A stretch of DNA of 42,860 nucleotides, taken from assembly GCA_964474495.1 (NCBI GenBank), contig CAYYTN010000002.1, positions 1 to 42,860 on the forward strand. Reading direction: 5' to 3'. The translations under genes and the position numbers were made by a program. The number at the start of each line of letters is the position of its first letter. Position 1 is the first letter of the stretch. The notes beneath the pieces are model-generated. The model worked only from the letters and a program-made list of their open reading frames with translations. It ran no database searches and was not told the DNA's origin. Positions 1,972 through 30,678 of the stretch are shown here, piece after piece. The DNA comes from an uncultured Chloroflexota bacterium. Its GTDB lineage: Bacteria; Chloroflexota; UBA11872; VXNJ01.

Positions 1972-2471
1972 TTCGGCTTCCTTGCGTTTAGCGGGCGGCA
2001 ATATTGGATGAGGAACGCAGGGAGCACAAGCGAATCGTCCCCCCGGAATCCGGCGATGTGATCTGGCCGGCAGCCCGGCGGACTCAGTGAGTCCCGTGGC
2101 TTTGCGTCCCCATCTCACGATGGGTTTGCCCTTTACGACTTTGCCGTCTAGAAGAATGATCGGCATTCCATCTAGCCGGAATCAAGACTTTGCCATCGTA
2201 GTCCTCTTCGCTACCCGAGAATGTTCAGTCGCTAACACTTTCGGCGAGATTTCCTTCGCGGCGGCTGTGGTGAATCGGGCCTCCGCCTGGCCTGAAGGGG
2301 AGCCGATCATGGGGCCGGGGGCGGCGATCCACCGGAGGAGTCTCGTCGGATATCGCGAGGCGACGAAAGATTGTTCGTCTGTTTGGAGCGCCCGGCGGTT
2401 GCCTGGGCTAGAATCTACCGGATTTTTCGGGGGGTTGGCGAGGAAGGCTACTCACCCTGCAAATCGAATAC

Positions 2472-3406: not shown

Positions 3407-3960
3407 CGCCCTCGAACCCGGCCCCCGACCGCGCGGCGATCGCGGTGTGGGCGAAGGCCAGTTTCGAGCCGCTCGGCGGAACGGTGGCGGAGGATCGCCA
3501 GTTTGTGGAAGTCGAGTTGCCGGCGGCCAACATCCGCAAGGCCGCCCGGATCATCCGCGAGAACCCCGAGATCGAATTCAGCCTGCTGTACGACATCTGC
3601 GGCCTGCACTGGCCGGATGACGAGGAACTCGAGGCCGTCTATCACTTTTTCGGCGGCTGGCACGCCGAGGGATTGGTGCTGAGAACGCGAGTGCCAGAGG
3701 CGGACCCGGTCATTCCGTCGATCAGCGAGGACTGGCCGACGGCCAACTGGCACGAACGCGAAACCACGGACATGTTCTTGATTCAGTTCGAGGGCCACCC
3801 CTACCCAGAACCGCTGCTGCTGGAGACGGACATGCAGGGCGCGCTGCTGAAGCACTACCCGCAGCGGGAGGCGCCCGACGTCGTGGAGCGGTTCAAGGCC
3901 CGCGGAGAGACCCCATTCCAGGTCTGGAAGCCGGTTCGTCCCGAGATCGCCGATGACTGA
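3391..3960 (+). CDS. nuoC: NADH-quinone oxidoreductase subunit C
   Basis: ATG at 3391, in frame within track ORF 3001..3960. The upstream part of that ORF is out-of-frame read-through of nuoB. The sequence ...[19 protein letters not shown]... resembles the 30-kDa subunit. It overlaps the nuoB stop. Confidence 0.88.
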
Positions 3961-5089
3961 GGCTCAGCTTCCGAACCCCGGCGTCCCGGATCTTGAGACC
4001 CAGGCGATGGAAATCAACATGGGGCCCCAACACCCCAGCACCCACGGCGTCTGCCGGCTGGATATCGTCGTCGATGGCGAAGTGATTCAACGATGTCGTC
4101 CGGATATCGGGTTTCTGCACCGCGGCATCGAGAAGATCGCTGAGGACTTGAGCATCGGCCAGGTAGCGGTGATAACGGATCGCGCCGACTATCTATGCGC
4201 GCTGAATACGGAGTTCGGGCTGATGCTGGCGGCGGAGCAGCTGTACGGCGTGGAGGTCCCCGAACGAGCGGAGTACATCCGGGTGATCCTGGCGGAGTTG
4301 AACCGGATCGCCAACCACATGATGTTTTACGGCGCCATCGGCACCGATTCCGGATTCAGTTCCCCCTACATCTTCGCCTGGTGGAATCGTGAAGTCATCC
4401 AGGATGTCCTGGAAGAGGTGAGCGGTGCCCGCCTGTTGCACAACTACTTTTCGCTGGGCGGGCTGCGACAGGATGTGCCATCGGGCTTCAAGGATTCGGT
4501 CGCGGCCATCCTGCCCCGGTTGTCACAGGGAATCGATGAGTGTGATGGGCTGCTGTCCGGCAGCGAGATCTTCCGGGTCCGAACGCGCGGCCTGAACTCG
4601 ACTACTCCTGAAGAAGCGATGAGCCTGGGTCTCACCGGTCCGGTGCTACGGGCTACCGGGATAGAACGAGACCTGCGGAAGCTCCTGGGCTATTCGATCT
4701 ACGACAAGTTCGACTTCGAGGTCCCGGTTGGCACCGTCGGCGATGTCTACGAACGCTACCTGATGCGGGTTTTGGAAATGCGCCAGTCGATCCGAATTAT
4801 CGAGCAGGCGCTGGAGGGGATGCCGGCCACGGGCGAGTTCCTTGGTGAGGTTCCGCGGCGGCTGCGCTTCCCCGAGGGCGAGGCCTACTCGCGTACCGAG
4901 AGCCCCCGTGGCGAGCTGGGAATCTACCTGGTGGGCAACGGCCAGAACACCCCCTACCGGCTCAAGATCCGGGCGCCGGCATTCGTGCACGCCGGGGCGA
5001 TGGAGCAGATGCTGGTGGGCGGGTACATCCCGGACGCGGTGGTCATCTTCGCTTCGGTGGACATCGTGCTGGGCGAGGCCGACCGATGA
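3953..5089 (+). CDS. nuoD: NADH-quinone oxidoreductase subunit D
   Basis: MGPQHPSTHGV and ELNRIANHMMF motifs, 378 aa. It overlaps the nuoC stop by 8 nt. Confidence 0.95.
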   Translation: MTEAQLPNPGVPDLETQAMEINMGPQHPSTHGVCRLDIVVDGEVIQRCRPDIGFLHRGIEKIAEDLSIGQVAVITDRADYLCALNTEFGLMLAAEQLYGVEVPERAEYIRVILAELNRIANHMMFYGAIGTDSGFSSPYIFAWWNREVIQDVLEEVSGARLLHNYFSLGGLRQDVPSGFKDSVAAILPRLSQGIDECDGLLSGSEIFRVRTRGLNSTTPEEAMSLGLTGPVLRATGIERDLRKLLGYSIYDKFDFEVPVGTVGDVYERYLMRVLEMRQSIRIIEQALEGMPATGEFLGEVPRRLRFPEGEAYSRTESPRGELGIYLVGNGQNTPYRLKIRAPAFVHAGAMEQMLVGGYIPDAVVIFASVDIVLGEADR

Positions 5090-6198
5090 CGCTGGTCGAC
5101 GTAATGACGATCATAGTGAAGGTGGCCATCTGCCTGGCGATCACGCCGCTGCTGGCGCTGGTGCTGGTCTACGGTGAACGCAAGACGCTGGGTCGCCTGC
5201 AGCGCCGGATGGGGCCGTGGCACGTGGGCCCGATGGGTACGCTGCAGACGGTGGCCGACGCGGTGAAGTTGTTGATGAAAGAAATCCTGATGCCGGCGGG
5301 CGCCGAACCCTGGGCCTACTTCATCGCCCCGATCGTCGTTTTCGCTCCGTCGGTCCTGGTGATCGTGGCGATCCCGTTCACGCGGGAACTGGTGGCCGCA
5401 AACCTGGACCTGAGTCTGCTCTACGTCTTCGCTGTACCCGCCCTGGGCACGATCGGCTTCATCATGGCCGGCTGGGCGTCGGGCAACAAATGGGCCCTGC
5501 TGGGCGGCATTCGCTACGTGGCGCAGGCCGTCAGCTATGAGATTCCGTTGGTCTTCTCGGTGCTGGGCGTGGCGCTGTTCGCCGGATCACTCTCATTGAT
5601 GGACATCGTGGACGCGCAGGCGGACAGCGTGTGGTTTGTGGTCGTTCAACCGACGGCGGTGGTGATCTTCTTCATGGCGGCGCTGGCGGAGCACTCGCGT
5701 ACGCCGTTTGACATGGCGGTGGGGGAGTCGGAGGTCATAGGCGGGCCGTCGATCGAGTATTCGGGAATCGCCTGGGCGATGTTCTTCCTGGCGGAGTACG
5801 TGAACGTGTTCATTATGGCGTCGCTGACGACGGTTCTGTTCCTGGGGGGTTGGGCGGGGCCTTTCCTGCCGGGATGGATCTGGTTCCTCATCAAGGCCGT
5901 GCCGCTGATGATCTTCACCTTCTACTTGCGCGGGACGGTACCAAGGCTGCGGATCGACCAGTTGATGGGGCTGTGCTGGAAGGTGTTGATCCCGTTGTCG
6001 CTGCTGAACCTGATCGTTGCGGCCACGTTTGTGGTCTACGGGTGGGCGCCGACGATCCCGCTGGCGATCGTGTCGCTGGCGGGAGCGTACTGGTTCTACC
6101 GGCGCGAATGGCTCAAGGTATTCGAGCTTCCCGAGCGCCCGCCGGTGCGCAAGCCGGTGCCGTCACGCGCCCTGGCCCAGACGGCGGACCCGGCATGA
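5086..6198 (+). CDS. nuoH: NADH-quinone oxidoreductase subunit H
   Basis: ATGA overlap with the nuoD stop. Polytopic membrane protein with ERK..G..Q.R.GP (GERKTLGRLQRRMGPWHVGP) and EYSG motifs. Confidence 0.95.
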   Translation: MTLVDVMTIIVKVAICLAITPLLALVLVYGERKTLGRLQRRMGPWHVGPMGTLQTVADAVKLLMKEILMPAGAEPWAYFIAPIVVFAPSVLVIVAIPFTRELVAANLDLSLLYVFAVPALGTIGFIMAGWASGNKWALLGGIRYVAQAVSYEIPLVFSVLGVALFAGSLSLMDIVDAQADSVWFVVVQPTAVVIFFMAALAEHSRTPFDMAVGESEVIGGPSIEYSGIAWAMFFLAEYVNVFIMASLTTVLFLGGWAGPFLPGWIWFLIKAVPLMIFTFYLRGTVPRLRIDQLMGLCWKVLIPLSLLNLIVAATFVVYGWAPTIPLAIVSLAGAYWFYRREWLKVFELPERPPVRKPVPSRALAQTADPA

Positions 6199-25478: not shown

Positions 25479-27089
25479 CTAGCGACGTTTCAAGACGAGC
25501 AGGGGATGGCGCTGCTCGGCGCCGCGGCTGGTGCGCTGGACGTAGGTATTTTGCGACATCTCGATGCGGGCGGTGTTGTCCACCAACCCGAACCCGGCCG
25601 ATTGGAAGGCGTGGACCAGCAGCTCAGAGGTGCCCCGGTAGGAATCAGTGTAGGTGATGACCGCATGCGCCCCGGGCTTCATGACCCGGCGGGTCTCCGC
25701 GGCCAGCCGCTCGATCTTGATTTCCCAGTCCGCCGCCGATTTGCCGCGCGCCCGGTTGAGAACGAGTTCGTCCTCCCCCCAAATCTCTGTGAAGCCGAGC
25801 CAGGCCTCCCAGACGAGGTTCAATTCCGAGAACTGGATCTTGTCCGAGTAGGGCGGGTCCAGGAACGCGAAATCGATCGATTCGTCGGGAATTGGGGACA
25901 GGTCAGTGGCGTCGCCGATGCCGGCCCAGGCGCTGGCGGGACCTTCGCGGGCTTGGGAAAGGGCATCGGCGCCGCGGGCGATATTGCCGACGATGCGCGG
26001 TAATGACACCAGCGGGTTGCGTTCTTTGCGGACGGGCGGCACGTAATACATGCCGGGCAGGTAGCCGCCTCCGCCCTCGAGGTGCTGGGCCTTGAGGCTC
26101 AGGCTCATCAGGCCGGCGGTCAGGATGAACAGCAGCGTCTCCTGGTCGGCGCCGGCATATTGGTCGATACCGGAACGGAGGGCGGCAAGGGAGCGCAGGT
26201 TGCGAGGCGTGAAAAGTCGATCGACGCTCGTGATACCGCGACCGATGAGTTCGGCGGTCTTCATACCCGGGGGAAAGGCCGTGGTGGGGAACCATCCCGA
26301 GATTGGCGCGGCGGCGGCGCGCTCGATGCCGGCGAGATCGAGTTCGTGAAATGCCGCCCGGGATTTTGGGTGGGGGTCGTCGTGGCGACGCCGGAATCGG
26401 GCCGGCCGGCAACTGCCGCGACAGCGGCCGGCCATCTCGACAACCTCCTGGCCTTCGCGGGGTCGCGGCCGGGGGAGGTCGTGCCGGCAATTCGGGCACA
26501 GCTTCCGGCGACCTTCGCGAAGGGCTTTCTCGGCCAGGAAGAGCTGATTGCAGTCAGGGCAGCGGTAGCGGTCGCTGATGACGGTGAATCCAGTGGCGGC
26601 GGGGCCGCCGCAGCGGTGACAGCGCGTCGTGTAGAGGTCTTCGATCTGCTGGCCGACGCGATCCAGCAGGGAGGCGAAGAGTTGCTTGATGGTGGCGCCG
26701 TCAGGCAAGGCCAGCGCCACTCTGGAGATGAAGGCCGCGGCCGGGGAGCGGTCGATGCCGATTCCGTTCCGGCCGGCCACGCTAGCCATCAGCAGCGTGC
26801 CGCCGGATCCGCAGAACGGGTCCAGGACCAGGTCGCCGGGTCGGGAGAAGGCCGCGATGCAGGCAGAGACGACCTCGTGCGGCTTCTTGGACCAGTAGCC
26901 GTGCAGGCGATAGGTGCGAGCGGTCCGGGTACCGGGCTCAAGCCGAAGGCGGCCGGGGGTGGCCGGGGTTGAGTTGGAATGGCGGTGCCGCTGCACGAAG
27001 GTCCGCAGCGACCCATCGCCGGCCCTGGGGGCGAGGGGGCCCCGGGGAACATCAGCCGAGCGTTGTACGGCTGACGGAATGGCGGCCAT
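25479..27089 (-). CDS. DNA methyltransferase (N4/N6 amino-MTase), motif I first and DPPY last, with Zn-ribbon insert
   Basis: ATG 27089 follows GGAGG. HGYWSKKPHEV and LVLDPFCGSGGTLL (AdoMet motif I) lie near the N-terminus. The middle has CHRCGG..(x)..CPDC and CPNC cysteine pairs. FAFLDPPY (catalytic motif IV) lies near the C-terminus. The layout resembles COG1743-type adenine methylases with a Zn ribbon. Confidence 0.8.
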   Translation of the reverse strand: MAAIPSAVQRSADVPRGPLAPRAGDGSLRTFVQRHRHSNSTPATPGRLRLEPGTRTARTYRLHGYWSKKPHEVVSACIAAFSRPGDLVLDPFCGSGGTLLMASVAGRNGIGIDRSPAAAFISRVALALPDGATIKQLFASLLDRVGQQIEDLYTTRCHRCGGPAATGFTVISDRYRCPDCNQLFLAEKALREGRRKLCPNCRHDLPRPRPREGQEVVEMAGRCRGSCRPARFRRRHDDPHPKSRAAFHELDLAGIERAAAAPISGWFPTTAFPPGMKTAELIGRGITSVDRLFTPRNLRSLAALRSGIDQYAGADQETLLFILTAGLMSLSLKAQHLEGGGGYLPGMYYVPPVRKERNPLVSLPRIVGNIARGADALSQAREGPASAWAGIGDATDLSPIPDESIDFAFLDPPYSDKIQFSELNLVWEAWLGFTEIWGEDELVLNRARGKSAADWEIKIERLAAETRRVMKPGAHAVITYTDSYRGTSELLVHAFQSAGFGLVDNTARIEMSQNTYVQRTSRGAEQRHPLLVLKRR

Positions 27090-27276
27090 CTGACCTCCGG
27101 CGACTAGAAATATCTCGGGGGCAAGGATAGGCCAGCGGGGGGAGGCGGGCTCGGCGGATGAAGCGGCGGGGGGCCGGGCCGAAAGAACGCGGCGGAATTG
27201 TAAGCTGGTTAACAGACCGCCCATCCCGCCAGGCGCATAGTACGCTGGTCCGAGCTAGTATCGGGCAGCCGTCAAA

Positions 27277-27368
27277 ACTGAATAGCGAACTGAAAAGGGC
27301 AAACCCGTCGCGAGGCGGGGACGCAAAGCTAAGGGGCTCACGAAGCCGGCCGAGCTGCCAGTAGGACG
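27277..27368 (+). promoter_or_regulatory. c-di-GMP-I (GEMM-I)-like riboswitch aptamer, unit 1
   Basis: GGGCAAACC (27297-27305). GNRA hairpin CCGUC-GCGA-GGCGG (27305-27318). GGACGCAAAGC (27319-27329), then UAAGGGGCUC...GAGCUGCC. ACUG (27289-92) can pair with CAGU (27359-62) as P1. This closely parallels the Vc2/Cd1 aptamer cores as recalled (GGGCAAACC...GAAA...GGGACGCAAAGCC). Confidence 0.8.
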
Positions 27369-27371
27369 GAA

Positions 27372-27414
27372 ACCCGTCGGAACGGCAGCAGGCCGAACCG
27401 GACGGGTTTTTTTT
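27372..27414 (+). terminator. intrinsic terminator of riboswitch unit 1
   Basis: CCCGUC (27373-78) pairs with GACGGG (27401-06), with flanking extra pairs, and is followed by U8 (27407-27414). Confidence 0.75.
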
Positions 27415-27459
27415 GCTTGCCGGCCCGGAACAGTCGAAGCTCTTCAGCCAGGCGGGACA

Positions 27460-27550
27460 ACTGAATAGATTCCCGAAAAAGGCAAAACCGTCGCGAGGCG
27501 GTGGCGCAAAGCCACGGGGCTCATGAGAGTCAGCCGGGCTGCCGCGGACA
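27460..27550 (+). promoter_or_regulatory. c-di-GMP-I (GEMM-I)-like riboswitch aptamer, unit 2 (variant core)
   Basis: It shares the ACUGAAUAG leader with unit 1, 183 nt downstream. GGCAAAACC (27481-89). Identical GNRA hairpin CCGUCGCGAGGCGG (27488-27501). UGGCGCAAAGC (27502-12), then CACGGGGCUC...GGGCUGCC. Confidence 0.7.
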
Positions 27551-27555
27551 CAGGC

Positions 27556-27594
27556 ACTCGCTCGCGGCTATCGAAGTCAGAGCGAGTTTTTTTT
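27556..27594 (+). terminator. intrinsic terminator of riboswitch unit 2
   Basis: Perfect 8-bp stem ACUCGCUC (27556-63) / GAGCGAGU (27580-87) with a 16-nt loop. The U8 run is 27587-27594, and its first U closes the stem. Confidence 0.8.
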
Positions 27595-27695
27595 CTGGGA
27601 ATAGCCCGGGACAGATGGTCAGGCCCGGGACGGAGGAGGCAGACGGAAAACTGGCCGGTTGATGATGTTGTATCAGAGGAAGGGACATTCCCAGA

Positions 27696-27869
27696 ATGAT
27701 GTTTTGGAAGACCATTGAATCGATCGAGCGCGAGGACGAAGGCCAGGCCCTGGTCGAGTACGGCTTGATCTTGTTTCTCGTCAGCGTTGCCATCGTTGCG
27801 GTTCTCGGACTACTGACTGGCCAGTTGCAGGTCGTTTTCCAGGCCGTTATCGCGGCGCTCGGCGGGTAA
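27696..27869 (+). CDS. flp: Flp family type IVb pilin (prepilin, 57 aa)
   Basis: Absent from the ORF track because it is under 60 aa. GAGGAAGGGA lies 10 nt upstream of the ATG. Sequence: MMFWKTIESIEREDEG/QALVEYGLILFLVSVAIVAVLGLLTGQLQVVFQAVIAALGG. It carries the Flp G/xxxxEY processing motif and a hydrophobic helix. It lies directly upstream of tadV-cpaB-tadZABC. Confidence 0.85.
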   Translation: MMFWKTIESIEREDEGQALVEYGLILFLVSVAIVAVLGLLTGQLQVVFQAVIAALGG

Positions 27870-28079: not shown

Positions 28080-28547
28080 GTGGTGAGCATGCTTTACGCA
28101 GCAGCGATAGTTCTGGCGGCCGCGGCCGTTGCGACCGATCTCAGGTCCCGGAGGATACCTAACTGGTTGACCCTGCCGGCCCTGGGAACCGGCGTGACGC
28201 TTGGCCTTGTCGATGGCGGAATCGGCGGACTTGCCACCAGCCTGGTCGGCATCCTCGTCGGCGGCGGACTCCTGCTGGGCCCCACCCTGATCGGGGCCAT
28301 GGGCGCTGGAGATCTGAAGTTCCAGGCGGCGATGGGGGCCCTGCTGGGTCCCTGGTTTGCGGCCATATCGCTCGCCGCGGCGGCAATGTTTGGTGGCCTG
28401 CTGGCAGCCGGGTACGTCGTCTGGGCGATTCTCCGGCGGCGGCAGACGCTGCGGGCCGCACTGGCCGGACGCGTGCCCTACGGGCCGGCGCTGGCGCTCG
28501 GAGTCGTGGCGGCAATTCTGTTGCAGGCCCTGCCCCGCGGGGCATGA
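28080..28547 (+). CDS. tadV: A24-family prepilin peptidase, short TadV/CpaA type
   Basis: 155 aa polytopic protein with the two aspartate motifs ATDLRSRRIPN and GAGDLKF. It has no N-methyltransferase domain. Confidence 0.85.
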   Translation: MVSMLYAAAIVLAAAAVATDLRSRRIPNWLTLPALGTGVTLGLVDGGIGGLATSLVGILVGGGLLLGPTLIGAMGAGDLKFQAAMGALLGPWFAAISLAAAAMFGGLLAAGYVVWAILRRRQTLRAALAGRVPYGPALALGVVAAILLQALPRGA

Positions 28548-28578: not shown

Positions 28579-29415
28579 ATGTTTAGAAACAGCGGAACAA
28601 GACGGATAGCGATCGCCGCTTTTGTGGCGCTCTTCGCAGTGTGGGTAGTCGTGGCGGTGTCGGCGATGCGCTTCATCCGCGAGCAGAACGAGGAAGCCGG
28701 CCGCACCGAGCCCTTCGTGGAGGTGGTGTACGTCACGACCCTGATCGAGGCCCGGGCGGTGGTGCCGGCGGACAGCCTGGAGGTGAAGTCGATACCGATC
28801 AGCCACGCGCACATCGACGCGGCCGTTTCGGTCGCCGAGGTGGCGGGGCAGATCGCGATCCAGTCGATGTTCGCCGGCGAGCAGGTGCTGCGCGGGAAAC
28901 TCACCGCCATCCGCGCCGACGCCGGCCTGGCGCTGCAGATCGATGCCGGACAGCGGGGCATCTCGGTCTCGTTCAGCGAGGTCATCGGCGCCGGCGGCCA
29001 CATCGTCCCCGGCGATATCGTGGACGTGATCGCGGTCTTTGACGACAACGTGCTCGAGGCGCGGTCGGCCGGCTACATCCTGGAGGGTGTGCAGGTGCTG
29101 GCGGTGGCGCGAGAACTGCAACGCCCGCAAGTCCTGCCCGAGACCGGGGCCGAGACCGAGGGCGGCGGATTTGGCTCGACGCAGAAGGAGACCATCGCGC
29201 AGTCGGTGACGCTGGCGGTATCCCCGGCCGAGGCCCAGCGACTGGCGCTGGCGGAGCGGTTTGGGGACCTGCGCCTGGCGCTGCGACCGCTGAATGAGGA
29301 GATGGGGGCCGCCCCGGAGATCGTGGATATCGAACACGTGTTCCTGGGCGACCCGGTTGAAGTGGCCACACTGGGACCGACGTCCCTGGCCACCGCCGAT
29401 GCGGCGGGGAGGTAG
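28579..29415 (+). CDS. cpaB: Flp pilus assembly protein CpaB/RcpC
   Basis: N-terminal TM segment. SAF-like segment (VPADSLEVKSIPISH...GEQVLRGKL). RcpC/CpaB C-terminal segment (GQRGISVSF...GGHIVPGDIVDVIAVF...VTLAVSPAEAQRLALAE). Confidence 0.85.
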   Translation: MFRNSGTRRIAIAAFVALFAVWVVVAVSAMRFIREQNEEAGRTEPFVEVVYVTTLIEARAVVPADSLEVKSIPISHAHIDAAVSVAEVAGQIAIQSMFAGEQVLRGKLTAIRADAGLALQIDAGQRGISVSFSEVIGAGGHIVPGDIVDVIAVFDDNVLEARSAGYILEGVQVLAVARELQRPQVLPETGAETEGGGFGSTQKETIAQSVTLAVSPAEAQRLALAERFGDLRLALRPLNEEMGAAPEIVDIEHVFLGDPVEVATLGPTSLATADAAGR

Positions 29416-29418
29416 TGG

Positions 29419-30678
29419 GTGATGGAGTACAGCGGAAACGTTTTTGTGGTCGCCCCTGCTCCGGCGGATGAGTTCGACGACGCGCTGGATGCGGCCGGGG
29501 TTGAGGTAGTCGGACGCTCGGAGCCGGATCCGATTCAGTCGGTGGCGGCGATCAGCGCGGCGAAGCCGGATGCGGTGCTGGTGGATCTCGACTGGCCGAT
29601 GCAGGACTCTCTGGAGGTGATTGCCGGTCTGCTGGAAGCCGAGCCGGCGCTGCCGGTGGTCGCGGCGACATCGATGCCGCGGTCGGCTGAGATCACACAG
29701 CTCCTGGAATCCAGCCTGGTGTCGGTGGTGGAGAAGCCGCTGCAATGGGTCGAGTTCAAGCAGGCCAGCAACCGCCGGCTGAACGGGTCGGCGCACCCAA
29801 CGGCGGTGGACGCGGAGCCGGTGGTCGCTGAAGGGGCCGGCCGAGTGATCGCCGTGGCCGGAGCCAAGGGTGGGAGCGGCCGGACGGCCATCGCCACCAA
29901 CCTGGCGGTGAGCCTGGCGATGACCCGGAAGGCATCGGTGGCGCTGGTGGACTTCGATCTGGAATTCGGCGATGTCGCGCTGGCGCTCGACATGGTCCCG
30001 GATTTCAGCCTGGTGGACCTCCCCCAGCAGATGGAGCGGCTGGATCCGCTGTTGCTGGGGCAGTACATGACGTTGCACCAGAGCGGTCTTCGGCTGCTGG
30101 CGGCGCCGATGCGGCCCGGGCAGGAGCGGCGTTTCACCGCTCGCCATGCGGTGGTGATCCTGAACCTGTTGCGGCAGATGTTCGATCTGGTGGTCGTCGA
30201 TCTTCCCCGGGGGCTGGGACCGATTCCGGCGACGACGCTGGGGCTGGCCGAAGAAGTGGTCTTCGTGGCCGAGCCGCAACTGGCCGGGATCAAGAACAGC
30301 CGCCTGGCCCTGCACGTGCTGGATTCCTGGGGGAACAAGGAGCGTGGCCTGCGGGTGGTGCTGAATCGAAACACACCCAAGGCGCAGGCCGTCAGGGCCG
30401 AGGTGGAAGCGGCCCTGGGTACGGAGATCGCGGCCGAGTTCCCGTTCGAGAAGAAGCTGGCGAAGGCGATGCTGGCCGGGCGGTCTCTGCGGGAAATGGC
30501 TCCCAAATCTCGCCTGGTGAAAGCAATCGATCGACTGGCGAATGAACTGGCTCCGCAGGGAGCGGTTGAGGCTCCGAGTCGGTCGGTGCTGGGTTTCTTC
30601 CGCAAGACCCGTCGCGAGGAGCTGCGCAGCCTCGAACGAGCGGTCCTACAGGCGAGTGGAGGTGACAGCGGTGGCTAG
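29419..30678 (+). CDS. tadZ: TadZ/CpaE: receiver-like domain fused to a ParA/MinD-type ATPase
   Basis: The N-terminus resembles a CheY-like domain (DAVLVDLDWPMQDSLEVI). The ATPase part has VIAVAGAKGGSGRTAIATNLAVSLA. The start is GTG 29419 or ATG 29422. Confidence 0.85.
   Translation: MMEYSGNVFVVAPAPADEFDDALDAAGVEVVGRSEPDPIQSVAAISAAKPDAVLVDLDWPMQDSLEVIAGLLEAEPALPVVAATSMPRSAEITQLLESSLVSVVEKPLQWVEFKQASNRRLNGSAHPTAVDAEPVVAEGAGRVIAVAGAKGGSGRTAIATNLAVSLAMTRKASVALVDFDLEFGDVALALDMVPDFSLVDLPQQMERLDPLLLGQYMTLHQSGLRLLAAPMRPGQERRFTARHAVVILNLLRQMFDLVVVDLPRGLGPIPATTLGLAEEVVFVAEPQLAGIKNSRLALHVLDSWGNKERGLRVVLNRNTPKAQAVRAEVEAALGTEIAAEFPFEKKLAKAMLAGRSLREMAPKSRLVKAIDRLANELAPQGAVEAPSRSVLGFFRKTRREELRSLERAVLQASGGDSGG

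Follow-up and report, generated by a model that had tools for sequence, protein, structure and literature searches.

How is the flp-tad pilus operon of an uncultured Chloroflexota bacterium controlled, and in which direction? The stretch of DNA that we analysed, referred to below as the window, comprises 42,860 nucleotides (nt) of contig CAYYTN010000002.1 (assembly GCA_964474495.1). The leader of its flp-tadV-cpaB-tadZ-cpaF-tadB-tadC operon, between flp and a divergent DNA methylase gene, raises this question through a direct repeat: 83 nt (27261-27343 versus 27444-27526) recur at 78% identity and a spacing of 183 nt. A preliminary description had noted a duplicated module of about 183 nt at this site and had read it as two units, each consisting of an aptamer of the GEMM-I type, i.e. 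of cyclic di-GMP class I (c-di-GMP-I), and a terminator of its own. The repeat is indeed present, and the reading as two units is borne out by covariance-model matches, covariation in the aptamers, folding and the occurrence of the same doublet in relatives. We propose that the leader contains two c-di-GMP OFF riboswitches in series before flp-tad, a model to which we assign a probability of roughly 0.6.

Two aptamers of the c-di-GMP-I class and their probable ligand

The whole window was scanned with cmscan against Rfam 15 at the curated gathering thresholds. The scan returned three full-length matches, all in clan CL00126; two of them are the leader aptamers (Table 1), for which RF03167 is the best model and both of which exceed the RF03167 gathering cut-off of 59 bits. 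Three more matches of the same clan pass their own thresholds and overlap the better-scoring RF03167 matches, so they are not displayed. Scores for RF01051 were displayed for orthologs only, and those given for the window units are RF03167 scores; RF01051 is the best model for the near-identical unit-2 orthologs in two relatives (L003 and L029), which score 55.5 and 56.8 bits where the cut-off is 35. A search of Rfam, which the preliminary description had proposed, thus matched both units above the clan thresholds, and a permissive Rfam scan of 27100-27750 gave no further credible match.

Table 1. Features of the window discussed in the text, with their coordinates.
Feature	Position	Strand	Basis or detail
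Aptamer 1, c-di-GMP-I class	27289-27363	+	cmscan 63.5 bits, E 7.6e-13, model positions 1-80 of 80
Aptamer 2, c-di-GMP-I class	27472-27547	+	cmscan 70.4 bits, E 7.9e-15, model positions 1-80 of 80
Intrinsic terminator 1	27368-27414	+	stem AAACCCGUCGG (27370-80) with CCGGACGGGUUU (27398-27409), U8 27407-14; fold -24.7 kcal/mol
Intrinsic terminator 2	27556-27594	+	outer stem ACUCGCUC (27556-63) with GAGCGAGU (27580-87), U8 27587-94; fold -16.9 kcal/mol
Predicted antiterminator, unit 1	27348-27394	+	aptamer 3' strand GGCCGAGCUGCC (27348-59) with GGCAGCAGGCC (27384-94) of the terminator loop
Candidate antiterminator strand, unit 2	27490-27497	+	P2 5' strand and loop GUCGCGAG, pairs with CUCGCGGC (27561-68)
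ACTGAATAG motif (ACUGAAUAG), part of the duplicated module	27278-27286 and 27461-27469	+	direct reading; before each unit in relatives, with variants
Segment right after terminator 2, complementary to the flp Shine-Dalgarno/start region (27681-27697)	27592-27608	+	inverted repeat
flp, pilin gene, first in the operon under putative riboswitch control	27696-27869	+	Pfam, open reading frame (ORF) list
tadV	28080-28547	+	Pfam, ORF list
cpaB	28579-29415	+	Pfam, ORF list
tadZ	29419-30678	+	Pfam, ORF list
cpaF	to 32191	+	Pfam, ORF list
tadB and tadC	to ~34075	+	Pfam, ORF list
Divergent DNA methylase gene (N6_N4_Mtase)	25479-27224	-	Pfam
Third aptamer, same receptor-less c-di-GMP-I type	2065-2139	-	cmscan 70.7 bits

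The fold of the class can be followed through both units. In aptamer 1, helix P1 is formed by 27289-92 with 27359-62 and the P2 hairpin by 27304-09 and 27314-19 around a GCGA loop. The hairpin CCGTC-GCGA-GGCGG is identical in units 1 and 2, and both units also contain the GGCAAA(A)CC and CGCAAAGC blocks; every sequence element listed earlier for the module was found where it had been placed. The outer P2 pair of aptamer 2 is A-U in place of C-G, a compensated change. P2 is capped by a GNRA loop (GCGA) in both units, and P3 is short in both, without the 11-nt tetraloop receptor (CUAAG...UAUG) of the RF01051 consensus, i.e. the P3 receptor part of the type 1 form is missing. Since Weinberg is said to have noted receptor-less GEMM forms in 2007, the missing receptor still allows membership of the class.

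Covariation supports the same helices. Across nine related aptamers and 21 pairs, 94% of the cells are paired, compared with at most 40% when the partners are slid; nine pairs have changed on both sides, and none of 500 shuffles reached the observed value. The alignment of homologous leaders, which had been put forward as a means to examine covariation, therefore upholds the aptamer helices but not the unit-1 antiterminator and terminator 1, whose sequences are too alike. That the leader holds two tandem riboswitches of the c-di-GMP-I class is, in our judgement, close to certain.

Each aptamer is followed by an intrinsic terminator, in the order aptamer 1, terminator 1, aptamer 2, terminator 2, and three related Chloroflexota assemblies (L001, L028 and L029) show the same order. 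Transcripts ended by these terminators are predicted to have their 3' ends near 27414 and 27594. The stem of terminator 1 is 94.5% paired over five genomes, which reflects conservation of the sequence and not covariation; terminator 2, which has an inner stem of 27566-69 with 27575-78, shows compensatory changes in relatives, from U-A to C-G and from G-U to A-U. A consensus terminator scan listed neither of the two because their loops are longer than its 8-nt limit.

Which ligand would the two aptamers bind? In the Vc2 aptamer, the two ligand guanines are recognised by G20 and C92, and A47 is located at the ligand (PMC5888326). The equivalents of G20, A47 and C92 are 27298, 27325 and 27358 in aptamer 1 and 27481, 27508 and 27542 in aptamer 2. 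The position-47 column sits 27 nt past the unpaired G that precedes the GC of the first inner helix, and this mapping of the contacts is supported by the fact that the G-to-A spacing is likewise 27 nt in Vc2 (G20, A47) and in Bc1 (G11, A38) (PMC11218506). All three columns are invariant among the nine aligned aptamers; in a set of 20 Chloroflexota-type aptamers, all have G20 and A47, and the 3' strand in the C92 region is conserved.

The label of the best-scoring model could nevertheless be taken to point elsewhere. RF03167 is entitled c-di-GMP-I-GGC, two conserved blocks differ between unit 2 and unit 1, and the first unit of a doublet that precedes flp in a Clostridia metagenome-assembled genome (MAG; L002) has A20, the signature of 3'3'-cyclic GMP-AMP (3'3'-cGAMP) binding. 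One or both units might thus bind another ligand, either that of the 'GGC' variant or 3'3'-cGAMP, which would make the leader a two-input device. We take the 'GGC' of the name to denote positions 20, 47 and 92, on our own reading of the two Rfam consensus lines. In the cmscan output these lines differ at a single binding-site position, model column 37 (gggGACGC-A-AAgCc in RF01051, GGGACGC-G-AAgCc in RF03167). That column is A in unit 1 (GACGC-A-AAGC), in unit 2 (GGCGC-A-AAGCC) and in 20 of 20 related aptamers, so that by the binding-site criterion the G at position 47 that defines the RF03167 variant is absent from all of them. The short P3 without a receptor is probably the reason why RF03167 outscores RF01051.

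The 3'3'-cGAMP sensors (GEMM-Ib) carry A at position 20 (PMC9481103); both window units have G there, which lends 3'3'-cGAMP no support as their ligand. It had also been suggested that unit 2 might differ from unit 1 in ligand, e.g. by sensing 3'3'-cGAMP. This is not supported: the contacts G20, A47 and C92 are the same in both units, and the differences between them lie at variable positions or in compensated pairs. Specifically, the AGGC-versus-GGGC and GGC-versus-GAC differences affect the base before G20 and the A/G of the GAC junction, both of which vary freely among the 20 related aptamers. We consider another ligand for either unit highly improbable. Judged by their sequences, both units are canonical c-di-GMP-I aptamers of a receptor-less subtype, and the identity of the contact residues makes c-di-GMP very probably the ligand of both.

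Direction of the response

Whether c-di-GMP would stop or permit transcription of flp-tad depends on how aptamer and terminator are coupled. The Cd1 OFF switch of Clostridioides difficile has a separate aptamer and terminator and a transient antiterminator, and the pilM ON switch has an aptamer and a terminator that overlap (PMC9262584). Both units of the window have the Cd1-type layout: the terminator hairpins are self-contained, lie 5-9 nt or more 3' of P1 and have no nucleotide in common with the aptamers. When the Rfam aptamer pairs were enforced, the terminator still folded in all four units tested (units 1 and 2 of the window and of L001). Because the terminators are wholly downstream of the aptamers, a liganded aptamer could not block termination directly; only an unliganded aptamer could prevent it, by lending a strand to an antiterminator.

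Such an antiterminator can be drawn for unit 1 (Table 1). It encloses a hairpin (GACGG 27365-69 with CCGUC 27374-78) that holds the 5' arm of the terminator, and it is what the minimum free energy (MFE) prediction gives for a transcript that ends short of the terminator 3' arm, at -40.1 kcal/mol compared with -32.9 kcal/mol when the aptamer is enforced. This advantage of 7.2 kcal/mol is equalled in a fraction of 0.043 of shuffled platforms. The alternative helices are 94.7% paired across five genomes. Within the terminator-1 loop the nonamer GGCAGCAGG is invariant and the flanking loop bases vary; invariance of this kind is unusual for a terminator loop and would fit a second role in pairing. 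The pair GCUGCC:GGCAGC, proposed earlier as a switching element (GCTGCC 27354-59 and GGCAGC 27384-89, as confirmed by direct reading), is conserved and extends to a helix of 10 bp. Only 3 nt separate the antiterminator helix from the terminator 3' arm, a gap that by our reckoning is too short for a pseudoknot, so the two structures should be mutually exclusive.

The MFE fold of full-length unit 1 offers a different long-range pairing, of the terminator-1 3' arm with the P2 5' strand. It draws on an exact 10-mer, AAACCCGTCG, that occurs both in the P2 5' strand (27301-10) and at 27370-79 and that has two mismatches in L001. We rejected this pairing as a mechanism because P2 would have to melt and because the identity of the 10-mers is lost in L001.

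For unit 2, the preliminary description had proposed GCCGCG:CGCGGC as the switching pair. Both strands were found by direct reading (27541-46 and 27563-68), but all six pairs (6/6) form in no doublet except that of the window and that of its nearest relative, and the count falls to 5/6, 5/6 and 4/6 in three other doublets. A better candidate is the pairing of the P2 5' strand and loop with the segment that comprises the end of the terminator-2 5' arm and the inner stem (27561-68). It is preserved at 8/8 in four of five close relatives and at 7/8 in the degraded locus of L003, and the predicted fold of a transcript that still lacks the terminator 3' arm includes it. We tentatively take 27490-97 with 27561-68 to be the unit-2 antiterminator. 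In unit 2 of L001, the terminator 5' arm can pair over 11 bp with the P2 3' strand, and this arrangement outperforms 99.7% of shuffles (fraction 0.003). More generally, the pre-terminator MFE folds pair the terminator 5' arm or loop with the aptamer in both window units, in both L001 units and in L002 unit 1.

In the model that we propose, an unliganded aptamer would donate a strand to the antiterminator, and transcription would proceed into flp-tad. In unit 1, the 27348-59 strand would pair with 27384-94 and the terminator 5' arm would be locked inside the small hairpin; in unit 2, the donor would probably be the P2 5' strand and its loop. Binding of c-di-GMP would lock the aptamer, free the terminator arm and stop transcription, in the manner of a Cd1-type OFF switch. 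Read-through to flp would require both aptamers to be unliganded as the polymerase passes, and with two switches in series it would be the product of two escape probabilities. Rising c-di-GMP would then shut off flp-tad more tightly and more steeply than a single unit could, the steepness being an expectation derived from published tandem riboswitches.

Several results weigh against the OFF direction or the model as a whole. The competition between aptamer and platform in window unit 2 is no better than in shuffled platforms (fraction 0.30), and unit 1 of L001 likewise lies within the shuffles (0.37); the test is thus significant in two of the four units, which leaves polarity unsettled on thermodynamic grounds. 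Support for the antiterminators comes from conservation and not from covariation, as there is a single two-sided pair change, which shuffles equal. In the full transcript, the combination of aptamer and terminator (-49.8 kcal/mol) exceeds the earlier antiterminator (-40.1 kcal/mol) in stability, so the antiterminator would have to work kinetically. The transcription start was not located by a consensus promoter scan or by conservation. Finally, c-di-GMP more often induces adhesive pili, e.g. through the c-di-GMP-II ON switch before C. difficile pilA1, which makes OFF the less expected polarity.

The same two c-di-GMP-I riboswitches could therefore be ON switches, in which case c-di-GMP would prevent termination and turn on the Tad pilus, with the tandem as an AND-like two-step checkpoint. 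Such a direction would match the general biology of c-di-GMP as a signal that favours surface attachment, and it gains from the partial significance of the antiterminator evidence. It also has precedent, since in many GEMM RNAs the terminator overlaps the aptamer, a layout in which ligand raises expression (PMC1950547). Both terminators of the window are, however, free of such overlap and form with the aptamer in place; we found no extended P1 or other structure of the liganded state that would hold the terminator arm, and an ON mechanism leaves the invariant GGCAGCAGG loop without a function. For these reasons we regard ON polarity as unlikely, if far from negligible. OFF polarity, suggested by the layout and the conserved alternative pairing, is the direction that we favour with moderate confidence, held at that level because the antiterminators show no covariation, two of the four shuffle tests are non-significant and the biology points the other way.

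Conservation of the doublet among relatives

Relatives were collected by a CpaB-based scan with one genome per species, followed by a protein search and contig look-ups for the close ones. The metagenome scan with CpaB yielded mostly distant relatives (~38% identity) with zero or one aptamer. The same ordered doublet was found in four other Chloroflexota assemblies (L001, L027, L028 and L029) and, in degraded form, in L003. The most distant of the four, L001 (a Chloroflexota MAG whose CpaB is 52% identical), has aptamers at 4744-4818 and 4946-5020, each with its own terminator, and then flp. In L027, L028 and L029 CpaB is 72-75% identical and the divergent methylase gene is present in all three; the spacing of the doublet is 183 nt in L028 and L029 and 188 nt in L027.

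Units at the same position resemble each other across genomes more than the two units do within a genome: mean identity is 86% between first units and 90% between second units of different genomes, compared with 72-79% between unit 1 and unit 2 of the same genome. The duplication therefore predates the divergence of these genomes and has been kept. In more distant relatives (CpaB 38-44% identical) a single aptamer of the same subtype precedes flp, and in some of them a divergent gene with a Tad domain is preceded by another aptamer, on the opposite strand. Such back-to-back single aptamers were located in L030 (1726-1803 on the minus strand and 2067-2144 on the plus strand), L031 (1631-1708 minus, 1979-2053 plus) and L032 (1649-1723 minus, 1972-2047 plus); in these three genomes, with CpaB 42-44% identical, one aptamer lies before the flp operon and the other before a divergent TadG-like gene (PF13400).

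Outside the phylum, the Clostridia MAG mentioned above (L002, JARLHS010000112) has a canonical RF01051 doublet (3415-3499 and 3621-3705) upstream of flp. Its first unit has A at the G20 position and its second has G, and this doublet may be a mixed-ligand tandem. The link of c-di-GMP-I aptamers to flp-tad loci is thus broad, and the doublet described here belongs to one Chloroflexota clade.

Could one of the two units be dispensable? It is conceivable that one unit is decaying or redundant and only one riboswitch works, or that the terminators are constitutive attenuators. A single aptamer suffices in the more distant relatives, the unit-2 orthologs of L027, L029 and L003 have single changes at conserved positions, and L003, a Chloroflexota MAG (JASLPR010000028) and near-identical relative of the window, shows outright damage in the regions 4840-4920 and 5190-5215. 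There, the aptamer-1 core is deleted exactly between the two AAACCCGTCG copies, which fuses the 5' end of the aptamer to terminator 1, and both U-tracts are eroded (TTTTATTA and TTTCTTCT). However, the same assembly has a TAG at codon 5 of flp and a cpaB split into fragments, and the locus looks inactivated as a whole, or the assembly error-prone. In the window, by comparison, both aptamers score above the strict RF03167 cut-off and their contacts, helices and U8 tracts are intact, and the ordered doublet has been retained across genomes in which CpaB is only 52-77% identical. Decay or constitutive attenuation is accordingly an improbable account of the locus, and we retain the model of two functional OFF switches in series.

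In L027, an insertion element (780-1930; genes for an rve integrase and a helix-turn-helix transposase on the minus strand) lies directly after the terminator-2 stem. It replaces the U-tract of terminator 2 and leaves the doublet ~1.3 kb from flp.

Genomic setting, known systems and implications

The genes downstream of the leader are those of a Tad pilus. Pfam recognises Peptidase_A24 (TadV), RcpC/CpaB, a ParA-like TadZ with a receiver-like N-terminus, T2SSE (CpaF) and two T2SSF proteins (TadB and TadC); the Flp_Fap match of the flp product, at 28.3 bits, falls slightly below its cut-off of 32.2. The divergent gene upstream encodes an N6_N4 DNA methylase. A gene of this family (~536-581 amino acids, aa) stands divergently beside the flp leader in every close relative (L027, L028, L029 and the P0002 contig); this synteny is conserved, and a functional link between the two is not obvious. 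In accordance with the preliminary description, which had seen no GGDEF gene, a search for the GG[DE]EF motif found none in any window ORF of at least 100 aa.

The window contains a third aptamer of the same receptor-less type (Table 1). The ORF that follows it, whose ATG at 1971 is 94 nt from the aptamer, encodes 526 aa; the protein has a twin-arginine-like signal peptide (RRTALRLTAGASLLAAAAVPATTLA) and belongs to no Pfam family. The aptamer is thus a separate member of the regulon. No U-tract follows the aptamer, so control at this site may be translational or may operate through Rho.

Other elements of the leader were also examined. An A-rich motif, AACUGAAUAG, with the variants AACUGAAGAG, ACCGAAUAG, ACUAAAUAG and AAUUGAAUAU, is found ~3-10 nt 5' of every doublet aptamer (window, L001, L003 and L027-L029); we found no pairing partner or known role for it. 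The hexamer TAGTAT at 27256-61, which had been suggested as a -10 element, did not stand up as one: it lies within a stretch that varies among five genomes, and no sigma-70-like promoter scored. A consensus scan and the alignment of relatives likewise gave no assignable conserved sigma-70 promoter for the leader. Further upstream, the blocks ATGTAA, AACAG and GCATAGT (~27197-27240) are invariant in five genomes and may be promoter or operator elements of flp or of the divergent methylase gene; on the minus strand of this region, ATTGTA reads TACAAT.

The segment after terminator 2, which starts in the U-tract of that terminator, would form a duplex with the flp Shine-Dalgarno region (27592-27608 with 27681-27697) at -22.0 kcal/mol, compared with -10.6 +/- 3.2 kcal/mol in shuffles. 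L001 has an equivalent duplex of different sequence that is likewise significant (-25 versus -15); in L003 and L029 the pairing is less strong, and L028 lacks it. In transcripts that read through, such a duplex could cover the ribosome site. A second complementarity, between 27223-27270 and the inter-unit spacer 27415-27458 (-43 kcal/mol), was set aside as marginal (shuffle fraction 0.045) and not conserved: it recurs in L003, where one mismatch has become a pair, and not in L001 or L027-L029.

How do the window units compare with characterised riboswitches? With Vc2 of Vibrio cholerae and RF01051 they share the three-helix junction, the GGCAAACC and GACGCAAAGC blocks, the GNRA loop of P2 and the contacts G20, A47 and C92, and they differ in their short P3 hairpin, which lacks the 11-nt tetraloop receptor. 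RF03167 resembles them in giving the top covariance score and in its short P3, but they have A and not G at position 47. Like the window units, Cd1 (flgB operon) has a separate downstream terminator, an antiterminator made with an aptamer strand and a surface-appendage operon as its target (PMC9262584); unlike them, it is single, has a long spacer and controls flagella, whereas the window has two units with short spacers before a Tad pilus operon and a polarity that is predicted. GEMM-Ib riboswitches, e.g. that of Geobacter pilM, have the same fold and often precede pilus genes, but they carry A20 and an ON terminator that overlaps the aptamer (PMC9481103, PMC9262584) where the window units have G20 and separate terminators.

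Tandem arrangement is itself well documented in this class. Tandem copies were noted when GEMM RNAs were described in 2007, and the gene list of that study includes cpaA, i.e. tadV, together with other pilus and flagellar genes (PMC1950547). In a 2022 survey c-di-GMP-I had the most tandems of any class, with 347 doublets and 12 triplets, and the Bc3-5 triplet of Bacillus thuringiensis was tested (PMC9481103). As in the window, the class is repeated within one leader, each copy has its own expression platform, and a sharper, more digital response is expected (PMC9481103); the window differs from these known tandems in its Chloroflexota host and its flp-tad target. This class of aptamer, its use in tandem and its association with pilus genes were thus known before, and the locus adds no new principle. 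Three points are mildly new: that the host belongs to the Chloroflexota, that a pilus operon is predicted to be under OFF control and that the RF03167 model captures canonical A47 aptamers; our literature search found no paper on an association of c-di-GMP riboswitches with Flp/Tad loci in Chloroflexota.

The locus offers a clean, conserved example of a c-di-GMP-I tandem in a phylum where c-di-GMP signalling and Tad pili have been little studied. It also carries a warning for annotation: although every short-P3 aptamer examined here has the canonical A47, Rfam either names it c-di-GMP-I-GGC or places it between two models, so the best-hit Rfam label is no statement on ligand specificity. If our reading is correct, RF03167 gathers canonical A47 sensors under a variant label. 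The wider proposition, that c-di-GMP represses the Tad/Flp pilus through a pair of receptor-less GEMM-I OFF switches that arose by an ancient duplication, within a small riboswitch regulon that includes a TadG-like gene and a secreted protein, stands in our estimation at even odds. OFF polarity is a testable prediction and, if true, would place the pilus in the low-c-di-GMP, i.e. motile or exploratory, programme of these filamentous bacteria.

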